NCBI GenBank assembly: GCA_965199855.1
Contig: OZ241326.1
Span: forward strand, 1,568,001 to 1,632,000
Direction: 5' to 3'
Length of the DNA stretch: 64,000 bases
Source: a bacterium
GTDB lineage: Bacteria; UBA8248
Positions within the stretch are counted from its first letter, which is position 1, and each line of letters starts with the position of its first letter. The notes under the pieces were generated by a model. It had not been told where the DNA came from and ran no database searches. It worked only from the letters and a program-made list of their open reading frames with translations. Shown here piece by piece: positions 56,500 through 60,609 of the stretch. The position numbers and the translations under genes were made by a program.

Positions 56500-56619
56500 C
56501 CGTCCCTGCGACATTTCGGGAACAGAGGAGGCTCTTTGGCTTCAGCGGATACGGTGGGGTCGACCGCGCAGGCCCGTTTTGATCGTTCGCGCGGCTCGCC
56601 GGAAGCGGGCGCGCGCGCT

Positions 56620-56652
56620 TCCTGAAAACCGAAAGCAGAAGGGTTTTCAGGA
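56620..56652. repeat. 11-bp perfect inverted repeat just upstream of the cysM RBS
   Basis: TCCTGAAAACC-N11-GGTTTTCAGGA. Confidence 0.7.
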
Positions 56653-56668
56653 CCAAGGAACGAGGGCC

Positions 56669-57634
56669 ATGACGATGGTCGAATCGACGGTGGAGAAGCC
56701 CGGAAGCGCGTTCAGGCGCTTGGAGGACTCCGCAATCATCAACTGCGTCGGCGGCACCCCCCTGCTCCGCGTCCGGCTGTTCGAGAGCGAGTTTCCGGGG
56801 GTCGAGGTCTACGCCAAGGCGGAATGGTTCAACCCGGGCGGCTCGGTGAAGGATCGGCCCGCGCTCTTCATGGTGAAGGACGGGCTGGAATCGGGCCGCC
56901 TGCGTCCGGGCAGGACGCTTCTCGATTCCACGAGCGGAAACACGGGCATCGCCTACGCCATGATCGGGGCCGCGCTGGGGATTCCGGTTCGCCTCGTTCT
57001 TCCGGCGAACGCGAGCGAGGAGCGCAAGGCTACCTTGAAGGGCTACGGCGCAGACGTGGTGTATTCTGACCCGATGGAAGGCTCGGACGGCGCGCAGCGC
57101 CTCGCGGCGAGAATGTCCCGGGACGAGCCTGAGAAATACTTTTTGCCGTGTCAGTATGACAACCCGGCCAACCCGCTCGCCCATGAGGAAACCACGGCGG
57201 TGGAAATCCTGGAGCAGACCGACGGGCGCGTCGCGCATTTCGTCGCGGGGCTGGGCACGACGGGCACCCTGGTGGGCACGGGACGCGGCCTGAAAAAGCG
57301 CAAGCCGGACGTCGCCGTTCACGCGGTGATGCCCTCCGAGTCGTTTCACGGCCTGGAGGGAATGAAGCACATACCTACGGCCATTCGCCCGGGGATTTAC
57401 GATGAGAACGCGCACGATGAGCTGATTCTGGCGGGCACCGAGGAAAGCTACGACCTGGCCGACCGGGCGGCGAGGGAGGAAGGCCTTTTCATCGGACGCT
57501 CGGCCGGAGCCGCGCTGGTGGGCGTCCGCGAGGTGGCGAGGCGGATGGGGAAGGGCGTCGTCGTCACCCTGTTTCCCGACGGCGGGGACAGGTATCTGAG
57601 CGAGGCGCGCCAAGGGGGCTCGGCTTGCGCTTGA
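56669..57634 (+). CDS. cysM: Second PLP cysteine-synthase-family enzyme (CysM-type)
   Basis: [32 protein letters not shown]; flanked by sulfur-carrier and JAMM genes. Confidence 0.8.
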   Translation: MTMVESTVEKPGSAFRRLEDSAIINCVGGTPLLRVRLFESEFPGVEVYAKAEWFNPGGSVKDRPALFMVKDGLESGRLRPGRTLLDSTSGNTGIAYAMIGAALGIPVRLVLPANASEERKATLKGYGADVVYSDPMEGSDGAQRLAARMSRDEPEKYFLPCQYDNPANPLAHEETTAVEILEQTDGRVAHFVAGLGTTGTLVGTGRGLKKRKPDVAVHAVMPSESFHGLEGMKHIPTAIRPGIYDENAHDELILAGTEESYDLADRAAREEGLFIGRSAGAALVGVREVARRMGKGVVVTLFPDGGDRYLSEARQGGSACA

Positions 57635-58113
57635 CCCGCGAACAGGTGGAGGCGATGCACAGGCACGCGCGCGAGGCCTATCCCGATGAATGCTGCGGCC
57701 TGATTCTCGGCGCGCCGCGCGCGGAAGAGGGCGCGGGCTTCCGCCTTTTGCCTTGCAGGAACGTCCAGAACGAGATGCACGAGAAGGACCCCGAAGGGTA
57801 TCCCCGAACGGCGCGGCGCGCTTTTCTGATCGATCCGTTCGAGTTCGAGCGCATCCTCAAAGGAGCGAGAGAGGCGGGCGAGGTGGTTCGCGGCGTCTTC
57901 CACAGCCATCCGGACGAGGACGCCTATTTTTCGCGTGAGGACGAGGCGGCGGCGCTTCCTTTCGGGGACCGCCCCTCGTTCCCGGAGGCGGAGCATGTCG
58001 TCATGAGCGTGCGCGAGGGCGTGGTGCGCGGTCAGAAAGTGTTCGTCTGGGACGGGGAGCGCAAAAGCTTTCTCGAAAGCGAGCTGGAGATAGCGGAGGA
58101 GACGGGCGCGTGA
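57625..58113 (+). CDS. Mov34/MPN/JAMM metalloprotease (Mec-like CysO-cysteine peptidase)
   Basis: YPDECCG, FHSHPD..AYFS..D (HxH-x7-S-xx-D). Confidence 0.9.
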   Translation: MRLTREQVEAMHRHAREAYPDECCGLILGAPRAEEGAGFRLLPCRNVQNEMHEKDPEGYPRTARRAFLIDPFEFERILKGAREAGEVVRGVFHSHPDEDAYFSREDEAAALPFGDRPSFPEAEHVVMSVREGVVRGQKVFVWDGERKSFLESELEIAEETGA

Positions 58114-58237
58114 GCCGCTTGGGTGCTCCCGCGGCCTCGGCCGCGCGGGCCGGCCGCCGCAAGGCGAAGCCCCGTGCGGGGCGAGAATCGTCCGCTCAAC
58201 GGACGGCGCGGGAGCGCCCGATGGAAGGACGCCGCCG

Positions 58238-58696
58238 ATGAAGATATCGACCAAGGGACGCTACGCCGTGCTCGCCATGATAGAGCTGGCCAGGCATTCG
58301 CAAACCCACCCCGTCCCCCTGCCCCAGATAGCCGGCAAGCTGAAGATCAGCCAGCACTACCTGGAGCAGCTGTTCGTGAAGATGCGCCGCGCCTCCCTGG
58401 TGAGCAGCGCGAGAGGGCCGGGCGGCGGCTACATTCTCGCGCTGCCCCCGTCCGAGATCAACATGCGGGACGTTCTGTTCGCGGTGGGGGAGACGGTGCA
58501 GCCGGTGGACTGCGGAGAGGCGGCCCCTTCGGTTCCGTGCCCGAACATCCCGGCTTGCAGCAGCCGCATTCTGTGGAAGAAGCTCGAAGACGCGATAGAC
58601 AGGACGCTCAGGGAAACCACTCTGGAGGAATTGAGCGCCCTCCCGGCCGGGGAGAGGAAAAGCGTCTGCCTGCCCAGTTTTCAGGTGAGCATCTAG
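58238..58696 (+). CDS. Rrf2-family transcriptional regulator (IscR/CymR-like)
   Basis: MKISTKGRYA, YLEQLF, RGPGGGY; three C-terminal Cys. Confidence 0.93.
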   Translation: MKISTKGRYAVLAMIELARHSQTHPVPLPQIAGKLKISQHYLEQLFVKMRRASLVSSARGPGGGYILALPPSEINMRDVLFAVGETVQPVDCGEAAPSVPCPNIPACSSRILWKKLEDAIDRTLRETTLEELSALPAGERKSVCLPSFQVSI

Positions 58697-58914: not shown

Positions 58915-59598
58915 TCAATCGTCCGGGTTGGGTTCGGGAAACGTCTCCGGCCAGTTGTCTATCAGCGCCTGGAGATACGCCTTCATTTTCCGGCCGTCGC
59001 CACGCACCGATTTTCTGATCTTCGCCACCTCGCTCTCGTCCTCGATAGGAATGCCGAACGAATCCATGAAGCGGTTCATCATGCCCTGCTTGCCGCTCAT
59101 CAGGGACATCTCGACGATTTCGCCGTCGGTGAAATGCTTTTTCACCTCGTCGAGCGCGCCGGGGTTCTCTCGCGCGGTGTTTTTCGTAAAATGCTCCGCC
59201 CAGAGGCAGGCGGCGCGCTCGCGCGGACTCAAGGCGGGAGAGGTCATATAGTCGTCCGAGGCGATCGCCCCGATTTGCTCGTCGGTGAGGCCCGTCGCTT
59301 GACCAAGCGCCGTGTTGTGCGCGATTCAGTAGGCGCAGGCGTTCACGAAGCTCGTCTTGAGGACGACGATTTCCTTGATCCGGCACGTCAGAAGCCCGCC
59401 CATGCCCTCGCGCTGGAGGGTGGCGTTGAAGGGCAGGTAGAGCCGCGCGACGTAGGGCGTGTTCGCCATGGCGAGCGCCGAGTTGGGGATGCGGCCCAGA
59501 AACTCGCGCGTCGCTTCAAAGAAGCGGGCCACGTCGCCCGCGGCCTCTCCGGGGTCGAGCATCTCGATTCTGCTTGTCTGTTGCGCCTGGTTCGTCAT
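58915..59598 (-). CDS. AhpD/carboxymuconolactone-decarboxylase-family protein, predicted selenoprotein (in-frame UGA at 59328-59326, CAYU motif), about 227 aa
   Basis: The two ORF-track pieces are in the same frame and separated only by TGA: ...KEIVVLKTSFVNACAY-U-IAHNTALG.... This aligns with the AhpD CxxC..H motif. GAGGA RBS before ATG 59598. Confidence 0.85.
59293..59312 (-). promoter_or_regulatory. Candidate bacterial SECIS hairpin
   Basis: mRNA CG-G-CGCUU-GGUC-AAGCG-A-CG; the G-initial apical loop starts 21 nt after the UGA. Confidence 0.65.
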
Positions 59599-59819
59599 GG
59601 GGTTCCTCAATGCGGGCTTCGGGAGGTTTTCGGGGCGATGAGGGATTATAGAAAACCTCGTCTCCCTTGGGAAACGGGGGCCGCGTCGGATGAAGCGCGC
59701 TTCCGGCGCGGGCTGAGCGGGAGCCGCGCGGTCGCCGTATGCGCGTAGCGCGTCGTTTTGTTAGAATCCATCGTCCCGCTCTTTCGCGCGAGAGCCGCTG
59801 ACTCTGAAGGGAGACCCGC

Positions 59820-60464
59820 ATGGCGGATTTTGATATCGAGATGACGGACAAACTTTTGTCCACAACGCGCTCCGTGAGGAAGCGCCTGGATTTCGACCGT
59901 GGGCTGCAGACCGGGAGCGTGATGGATTGCCTCGAGCTCGCGCTTCAGGCGCCCACAGGGTCGAACCGGCAGGGCTGGCGCTGGATCGTGGTGACGGATG
60001 AGGGCCTGCGCCGGGAACTCGGGCGCATCTACCGCAAGGGCGCCGGAGATTATCTGAAGCAGGGCATGGCGCAGGCGCGGGAGAGCGCATCCGCGCAGAA
60101 CGAGCGGGTGTTCGATTCCGCCATCTATCTGGCCGAGAATATCGAACGAGCCCCCGTTCACGTGATTCCCTGCATCCGGGCCGAGCTGCCCGAGAATCCG
60201 CCGAGATTCATGTGGGCCGGCCTTCTGGGCTCCATCCTGCCGGCGGTGTGGAGCTTTCAACTGGCGCTCAGATCGCGCGGACTGGGTTCCGTGTTCACCA
60301 CCCTGCATCTGCGCTGCGAGGCGGAGGCGGCCGCCCTGCTGGGCGTGCCGGACGACTTCATGCAGGCGGCGCTCGTTCCGGTGGCCTGGACGCTGGGGAC
60401 GAACTTCAGTCCCGCCGCGCGCCGCCCGCTCAATGAGGTTGTCCACGTGGACGGCTGGGGCTGA
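59820..60464 (+). CDS. Nitroreductase-family flavoprotein
   Basis: TTRSVRKRL, QAPTGSNRQGW, ALRSRGLGSVFTT. Confidence 0.92.
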   Translation: MADFDIEMTDKLLSTTRSVRKRLDFDRGLQTGSVMDCLELALQAPTGSNRQGWRWIVVTDEGLRRELGRIYRKGAGDYLKQGMAQARESASAQNERVFDSAIYLAENIERAPVHVIPCIRAELPENPPRFMWAGLLGSILPAVWSFQLALRSRGLGSVFTTLHLRCEAEAAALLGVPDDFMQAALVPVAWTLGTNFSPAARRPLNEVVHVDGWG

Positions 60465-60534: not shown

Positions 60535-60609
60535 TGGTGACCCCTAGGGGACTCGAACCCCTGTTACCGGCGTGAGAGGCCGGTGTCCTGACCGCTAGAC
60601 GAAGGGGCC
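60535..60609 (-). tRNA. tRNA-Glu (anticodon CTC)
   Basis: GGCCCCTTCGTCTAGCGGTCAGGACACCGGC-CT-CTC-AC-GCCGGTAACAGGGGTTCGAGTCCCCTAGGGGTCACCA folds as a 75-nt cloverleaf with encoded CCA. Confidence 0.97.

Follow-up and report, generated by a model that had tools for sequence, protein, structure and literature searches.

AhpD-like selenoproteins with a CxxU motif (U, selenocysteine, Sec) have been described from marine metagenomes and from a symbiont. The Sargasso Sea study of 2005 assigns 27 such sequences to COG2128 (PMC1088965), while in the Global Ocean Sampling (GOS) survey the group "AhpD-like 1" (COG2128, CxxU) has 299 members, the fourth highest count among the table rows seen (PMC2398784). 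A 2007 report counts seven genes for AhpD-like selenoproteins, a single worm symbiont having five of these (PMC1976440), and "AhpD-like protein, TIGR01926, CxxU" figures in a list in a 2026 review (PMC13188914). In BSepDB, three metagenome-assembled genomes (MAGs) labelled Nitrospinota/Nitrospinae (GTDB UBA8248), with 48-54 selenoprotein genes, rank in the top ten of bacteria rich in selenoproteins (PMC13326102).

Here we analyse a gene of this kind, located at 58915-59598 on the reverse strand of a 64,000-nucleotide stretch of contig OZ241326.1 (assembly GCA_965199855.1; GTDB lineage UBA8248). This whole stretch is called the window below. The locus is very probably a single gene with Sec at UGA codon 91, whose product is a cytoplasmic thiol/selenol oxidoreductase of 227 residues with the AhpD/CMD fold. 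It has in common with the AhpD-like CxxU family (COG2128/TIGR01926) the fold family, Sec at the position of the second Cys, a downstream selenocysteine insertion sequence (SECIS; a candidate in the present case) and an occurrence in marine metagenomes. However it differs by a TIGR01926 score below the cut-off, a C-terminal extension of about 40 residues and the presence of seven Sec paralogues in one genome. Its relatives stem from MAGs labelled "Nitrospinota bacterium". An earlier note, made from the sequence letters alone, had read the gene as a hidden selenoprotein. The gene is almost certainly a genuine selenoprotein gene and was correctly read, but it adds an unremarkable member to a family that is already known: AhpD-like CxxU selenoproteins have been described since 2005 (PMC1088965, PMC2398784). 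The computations presented here cover the reading frame, how the UGA is conserved, the equivalence of Cys and Sec, the Sec machinery, the fold and a co-varying hairpin.

One reading frame with a conserved internal UGA

The list of open reading frames (ORFs) made with translation table 11 splits the gene into two pieces, 59326-59610 (reverse strand, 94 aa) and 58915-59247 (reverse strand, 110 aa). The earlier note had assigned both to one frame, and coordinates and junction letters (AAC GCC TGC GCC TAC TGA ATC GCG CAC) are exactly as it gave them. Translated with TGA as U, the locus is a single reading frame whose sole internal stop is the TGA of codon 91, in the context N-A-C-A-Y-U-I-A-H. The 26 codons between U91 and Met118 are open, again as noted before, and the joint product has 227 residues where about 227 had been expected. 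The terminal stop is also a TGA (58915-58917). The start is likely the ATG at 59596-59598 rather than a TTG at 59610; 20/20 orthologues open at the equivalent Met, and a GAGGA motif ahead of it may act as ribosome-binding site. The window was also screened for other in-frame TGAs flanked by coding sequence with high G+C at third codon positions (GC3). Loose thresholds return 21 places, among which only the AhpD-like gene has a Cys-containing redox context while the others look antisense or spurious; this crude screen returns nothing at strict thresholds.

The internal TGA occupies the same column in all 20 orthologue loci (84-93% identity, the window's own locus included). The true stop varies among them (TGA in 2, TAA or TAG in 18). 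In the genome of the window nine places are homologous to the gene: seven have TGA at the CxxU column, one has the motif CHFC and the ninth has no such motif. Of 41 genomes from the genus and its surroundings, 36 have a match, and all the matches listed carry TGA except two, which span only residues past column 91. Across the phylum, a match with an E-value of 1e-10 or better exists in 50 of the 51 genomes searched; among the matches listed all but two carry TGA, one being without it and one having TAG. More distant homologues have Cys at this column, as observed in the database proteins P0005, P0006, P0009, P0011, P0012, P0013, P0015 and P0016 and in the PDB entries 2ijc/2o4d (CAYC). The alignment with Cys homologues and solved structures agrees with the earlier note that the UGA sits on the second Cys of a CxxC motif. 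In a maximum-likelihood tree with midpoint root, the Cys forms P0005/P0006 and P0009/P0011 are nested in a clade dominated by Sec forms, and its starred branches require at least two changes between the Sec and Cys states. The root of the tree is not established and therefore no direction is claimed for these changes.

Pairwise Nei-Gojobori estimates among the 20 orthologues (190 pairs) give ratios of nonsynonymous to synonymous substitution (dN/dS) of 0.163 before the UGA (codons 1-90) and 0.097 after it (codons 92-224), and the C-terminal extension taken separately gives 0.113 (187 pairs). Both halves are thus under purifying selection, and the low value after the UGA indicates that the part beyond the "stop" is translated in this frame. 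In the same orthologues, third codon positions are variable at 5 of 17 codons in the segment 88-104 compared with 163 of 224 gene-wide, and those of codons 97-100 are invariant. These data bear on the possibility of a pseudogene, in which a nonsense change of TGC or TGT to TGA in a CxxC AhpD-like gene would leave a 90-residue remnant or no product at all. Table 11 indeed stops at codon 91 and damaged-looking copies exist in relatives (L053, the G022 orthologue and L062, described below). However the TGA is fixed at one column in every orthologue with strong constraint downstream, it is likewise kept in six more paralogues and across the phylum, and the synonymous sites beside it hardly vary, contrary to what a decaying gene would show. 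We regard a pseudogene as extremely improbable.

That the codon is really TGC or TGT and the TGA an error of sequencing or assembly has a likelihood close to nil. The sequence does come from a single-contig metagenome-type assembly, a kind that can carry errors, but no contig that crosses 59326-59328 differs there in runs X4, X7 and X13, from three further studies, or in the RNA-library run X19, and the same TGA is present in independent assemblies of 19 other species. The X4 contig is near-identical and this run may be the source of the DNA analysed here. The gap in one divergent X7 contig (59338-59403) stops short of the UGA codon. The X19 contig is not counted as proof of transcription because it comes from a relative (about 92% alike) and DNA may be present in an RNA library.

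Some copies in related genomes appear damaged or atypical. L053 (G006:C2:769690-770630) has its frame shifted around the Sec codon, the G022 orthologue (G022:C1:2932737-2933416, L091) consists of two overlapping pieces, and L062 (G001:C1:439400-440350) has a second TGA where others have Arg. They could be assembly errors, pseudogenes or, for the additional TGA, a second Sec.

Selenocysteine machinery and a candidate SECIS hairpin

A complete Sec pathway is encoded in the genome, a single contig of 3.04 Mb with 67% G+C. The earlier note had proposed to look for selA, selB, selD and tRNA-Sec; all four are present, each above its curated or gathering cut-off. The genes selA (548 bits) and selB (372 bits) are adjacent. 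The selD gene (344 bits with TIGR00476; genome positions 2985603-2986568, reverse strand) itself contains one in-frame TGA, suggesting that SelD of this genome is probably also a selenoprotein. The tRNA-Sec scores 79.4 bits, and ARAGORN finds a tRNA-SeC with anticodon TCA.

The UGA could alternatively be read through or recoded as Trp, Gly or Cys instead of Sec, and the database proteins P0002 and P0007 do show W at this column. Both are metagenome-derived, and the W is most likely due to a gene caller using a table in which TGA codes for Trp. Moreover TGA is the commonest ordinary stop of the genome (1003 of 1530 long ORFs unfiltered and 604 of 1052 after GC3 filtering, a rough background as the unfiltered set has spurious antisense ORFs and the filtered set is selected on GC3), therefore there is no global reassignment, and TGA ends this very gene. 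The complete Sec pathway and the conserved hairpin that follows the codon also speak against recoding, as does the redox Cys found at this column in homologues, since the motif would be lost with Trp or Gly. We judge it very improbable.

The hairpin starts 13 nucleotides (nt) past the UGA codon. Counted from the U of UGA, its arms correspond to positions 17-24 and 29-36 and its loop to G25-G26-U27-C28. In the window's sequence the stem has five perfect pairs, which a G.A mismatch separates from another two. It was compared across 46 loci (L023-L068), which give 38 distinct 48-nt sequences. All 46, pre-picked for TGA, show C-x-x-TGA-x-x-H-N, and all have the codons CAC AA(C/T) after the UGA. 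In the 38-sequence alignment, standard pairs occupy 78.9% of the cells versus 68.5% in shuffles, none of 500 being as high, and sliding the 3' partner by 1-3 columns lowers pairing to 26-59%. Changes on both sides of a pair are observed in 35 cells versus 11.3 expected (0/500 shuffles). The pair that closes the loop is U-A in 24 of the 38 sequences and C-G in the other 14; this switch couples a synonymous third position (CUU/CUC) with the first base of the Gln/Arg codon two codons on. The Gly codon of the loop is GGT in 34 of 38 sequences and GGC in 4, although GGT represents only 9.6% (unfiltered) or 1.8% (GC3-filtered) of the Gly codons in the same rough long-ORF background.

Several observations weigh against a SECIS function. 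The loci were taken from rows already known to contain TGA and are a biased sample, and the shuffles overstate the co-variation because the hairpin lies inside the coding sequence of related genes. Shuffled sequences fold about as well as the window's sequence does (z = -0.61 for 106 nt and 0.00 for 41 nt). The hairpin has -7.0 kcal/mol versus a minimum free energy (MFE) of -12.3 for the 48-nt stretch, and a rival fold of the window's sequence is ahead by about 1 kcal/mol (-8.1 versus -7.0). The probability of the closing pair is approximately 0.00 in the 48 nt and 0.13 in positions 13-44 only. The hairpin is part of the MFE structure of only 16 of the 38 sequences when the 48 nt are folded. 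Restricting the folding to positions 13-44 raises this number to 30 of 38, but dropping the first 12 nt assumes that they lie inside the ribosome. RNAalifold returns zero consensus pairs on the 38-sequence alignment. An Rfam search of 59200-59400 at E-values up to 10 gives three matches at chance level, none of them to a SECIS family; at gathering score the whole window yields only a tRNA.

Taken together, the hairpin is likely but not proven to be a SECIS. Its GGUC loop, with G and U at a comparable distance from the UGA, resembles the SECIS of E. coli fdhF; the bases contacted by SelB are G23/U24 in fdhF, with G26/U27 as putative counterparts here, counted from the U of UGA. Compared with fdhF, the hairpin lies one codon further downstream, has a shorter upper stem and lacks the bulged U.

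Fold, C-terminal extension and proposed mechanism

Membership of the CMD/AhpD family, as the earlier note proposed, follows from the Pfam profile PF02627 (CMD), matched by residues 63-135 with 34.3 bits against a gathering cut-off of 23, and from fold matches to AhpD. The NCBIfam models are less favourable and in this respect count against assignment to the described families. TIGR01926 (peroxid_rel) is matched over its full span (model 1-178 of 178) but reaches 53.9 bits for a cut-off of 81.8. The second-best NCBIfam match, NF053654 ("YciW-related (seleno)protein"), has 50.9 bits (E 1.5e-13) versus a cut-off of 310, and NF041238 (AhpD_rel_CFYUT) 30.5 bits (E 2.1e-7) versus 175. The latter match is limited to positions 183-348 of the model, whose two-domain length is about 357 aa compared with 227 residues here. 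Both NF053654 and NF041238 are curated and belong to the same superfamily, and their CxxC site has Sec in some members and Cys in others; with scores far under the two cut-offs, the protein falls outside both equivalogs.

The best sequence match in the PDB is PA0269, an AhpD of P. aeruginosa (2ijc, 2o4d, 7xw1; E 6e-15). Its motif N-G-C-A-Y-C aligns with N-A-C-A-Y-U of our protein, Cys replacing Sec. However PA0269 has 145 residues, is without the first 70 residues of our protein as well as the extension at its C-terminus, and is the outgroup in the tree. The structures 2prr, 2oyo, 2pfx, 3c1l and 6k40 (D. radiodurans AhpD), a set of AhpD and "uncharacterized peroxidase-related proteins", have the same fold, with sequence E-values down to 1.4e-9 and 19-23% identity.

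An AlphaFold2 model computed from a 35-sequence alignment (pLDDT 94.1, pTM 0.90) predicts the all-helical AhpD/CMD fold. Foldseek ranks 6k40, 2prr and 3c1l (all with probability 1.00) first, followed by 2oyo and 2pfx, with TM-scores of 0.78-0.84 on the target over 180-190 columns. In the model the CxxU centre is located at the N-terminus of the helix 89-101. The helices of the C-terminal extension (Table 1) have a pLDDT of 92-94 and are followed by a Pro-rich, acidic tail. The alignment shows the extension in Sec and Cys forms alike. Chains of the AhpD type have 181-191 residues and align over 179-194 columns, therefore they cannot cover residues 185-227 and the extension is real; as the earlier note had supposed, it goes beyond the usual fold, of which solved relatives span some 185-190 residues.

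From these elements we infer Sec insertion itself, the binding of SelB to the hairpin, the chemistry and the substrate. Translation would begin at the ATG whose first base is 59598. With UGA91 in the A site, SelB and Sec-tRNA(Sec) would be recruited by the short downstream hairpin (positions 17-36, loop GGUC), so that selenocysteine would be inserted and termination avoided. A Cys88-x-x-Sec91-x-x-His94 centre would then form at the start of the helix. In AhpD of M. tuberculosis the nucleophile is the second of the two motif Cys residues, and the first is the resolving one. By analogy, the selenolate may attack an oxidised substrate (peroxide, sulfenic acid or disulfide), giving a selenenylsulfide with Cys88 that would be recycled by a reductant.

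Table 1. Coordinates in the window of the AhpD-like selenoprotein gene and its elements
Feature	Position	Strand	Details
Complete CDS of the AhpD-like selenoprotein	58915-59598	-	227 codons and TGA stop; orthologues colinear over residues 1-227
Likely start codon ATG; Shine-Dalgarno-like motif GAGGA	59596-59598; 59604-59608	-	ATG 5 nt after GAGGA
Cys88 codon TGC	59335-59337	-	first residue of CxxU; invariant in 35/35 aligned sequences
UGA codon 91, read as Sec	59326-59328	-	same column in orthologues and paralogues
His94 codon CAC	59317-59319	-	gives CxxUxxH; at least 90% conserved in the 35-sequence alignment
Candidate bacterial SECIS hairpin	59293-59312	-	5' arm 59305-59312, loop GGUC 59301-59304, 3' arm 59293-59300
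C-terminal extension, residues 185-227	58918-59046	-	helices 188-197 and 202-214, tail NWPETFPEPNPDD

Paralogues, gene neighbourhood and meaning for the family

Six further Sec paralogues are present in the genome (loci L063-L068), with TGA at 3006053, 2744889, 689227, 2071104, 1341050 and 1780368. Their motifs are, in this order, CAYU, CAYU, CKYU, CEIU, CNNU and CNNU. The CHFC paralogue (L069) lies at 1464764-1465231 and the homologue without motif, a degenerate copy, at 207603-208127. Against TIGR01926 the six Sec paralogues score 75.2, 61.7, 38.9, 61.4 and 32.0 bits, one giving no match, and no curated full-length NCBIfam model reaches its cut-off for any of them or for the window gene.

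The window gene has a divergent neighbour at 59820-60464 (forward strand) across a 221-nt spacer. It belongs to the nitroreductase family (PF00881, with weak BluB/FbiB-like NCBIfam matches) and keeps its divergent place in 22 of 23 related loci. As these 22 loci are all from one genus, a functional link with the selenoprotein gene is weakly supported. Downstream of the window gene, a run of three genes at 56579-58696 (forward strand) encodes a PALP (cysteine-synthase-like) protein, a Prok-JAB protein overlapping by 10 nt and an Rrf2-family regulator, and looks like a cysteine biosynthesis unit of the sulfur-carrier type. The regulator is IscR/CymR-like, under the equivalog cut-offs; in 10 of 23 related loci its gene is less than 3 kb away from that of the selenoprotein. 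A tRNA-Glu gene (anticodon CTC; 60535-60609, reverse strand) is the sole Rfam match at gathering score in the window.

The neighbours of the six other paralogues are cupin, NMT1-like, SDR, PIG-L, Mo-hydroxylase subunit, GNAT, RNase PH and PlsY genes, together with two without a Pfam match; no partner is common to these six neighbourhoods. Directly upstream of one Sec paralogue and on the same strand is a gene for a Mo-binding subunit of the xanthine-dehydrogenase/aldehyde-oxidase type (L097 1427-3682, forward strand; genome 1338426-1340681), a possible operon. The 3.7 kb downstream of another (L094 4286-8001; genome 2745285-2749000) contain zero ORFs of at least 80 aa with GC3 above 0.72, which hints at a different composition, at non-coding DNA or at RNA genes.

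These data are relevant to the possibility that the protein, while a genuine selenoprotein, is not of the peroxidase type but is a selenol-dependent reductive dehalogenase similar to Bmp8 or an enzyme of sulfur/cysteine metabolism similar to YciW. Bmp8 is a CMD-fold reductive debrominase of brominated metabolites. Its structures (6ohi/6ohj) are matched at an E-value of 1e-5, with TM-scores of 0.75-0.77 on the target, and the second rank of NF053654 points in the direction of YciW. The conserved nitroreductase neighbour, the nearby cysteine synthase, JAB and Rrf2 genes and the detection of the stretch in runs labelled sponge or marine metagenome are also consistent with such roles. However PA0269 and the AhpD-type structures match better than Bmp8 does, the conservation of neighbours is confined to one genus, and the other six paralogues share no neighbours. 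In addition, annotation of the neighbourhood shows no bmp-like gene context around the window gene. Such a function is unlikely.

A further possibility concerns the family as a whole. The gene may belong to a separate AhpD-like clade beyond the curated models, characterised by the C-terminal extension with an NWPExFPEP-type tail, near-exclusively using Sec and present at 3-16 copies per genome across a candidate phylum (Nitrospinota-labelled MAGs; sponge and marine metagenomes), with paralogues diversified into selenol-dependent enzymes acting on distinct substrates. The unrelated gene contexts of the paralogues (cupin, SDR, xanthine-dehydrogenase-type Mo enzyme, nitroreductase) suggest that such diversification may have occurred. 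The substrates could then include brominated metabolites, with reductive dehalogenation as for Bmp8 rather than plain peroxide defence. We consider this proposal quite unlikely and retain an AhpD-like thiol/selenol oxidoreductase as the best explanation of the gene.

Public protein collections contain only fragments of such proteins or a form in which W takes the place of Sec. The earlier note had foreseen that standard annotation would give two hypothetical proteins or a pseudogene, and truncated pieces are indeed in the databases: P0008 is a 140-aa C-terminal fragment called "carboxymuconolactone decarboxylase family protein". P0003 and P0004 (356-361 aa) consist of the post-Sec half of an AhpD-like domain and then a full-length domain without the Cys motif, which points to tandem or fused proteins of two domains, the first having been cut at its own UGA.

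The practical value of the finding lies in annotation, as gene callers split the gene at the UGA. The well-behaved AlphaFold2 model makes the protein a reasonable candidate for biochemical study. For the family, the case is mildly noteworthy: the clade falls under all curated full-length cut-offs, has seven Sec paralogues in this genome and carries a conserved extension without counterpart in solved relatives. Since no curated full-length cut-off is reached and gene callers split the gene at the UGA, the seven Sec copies per genome are likely to be missed or mis-called in this lineage.

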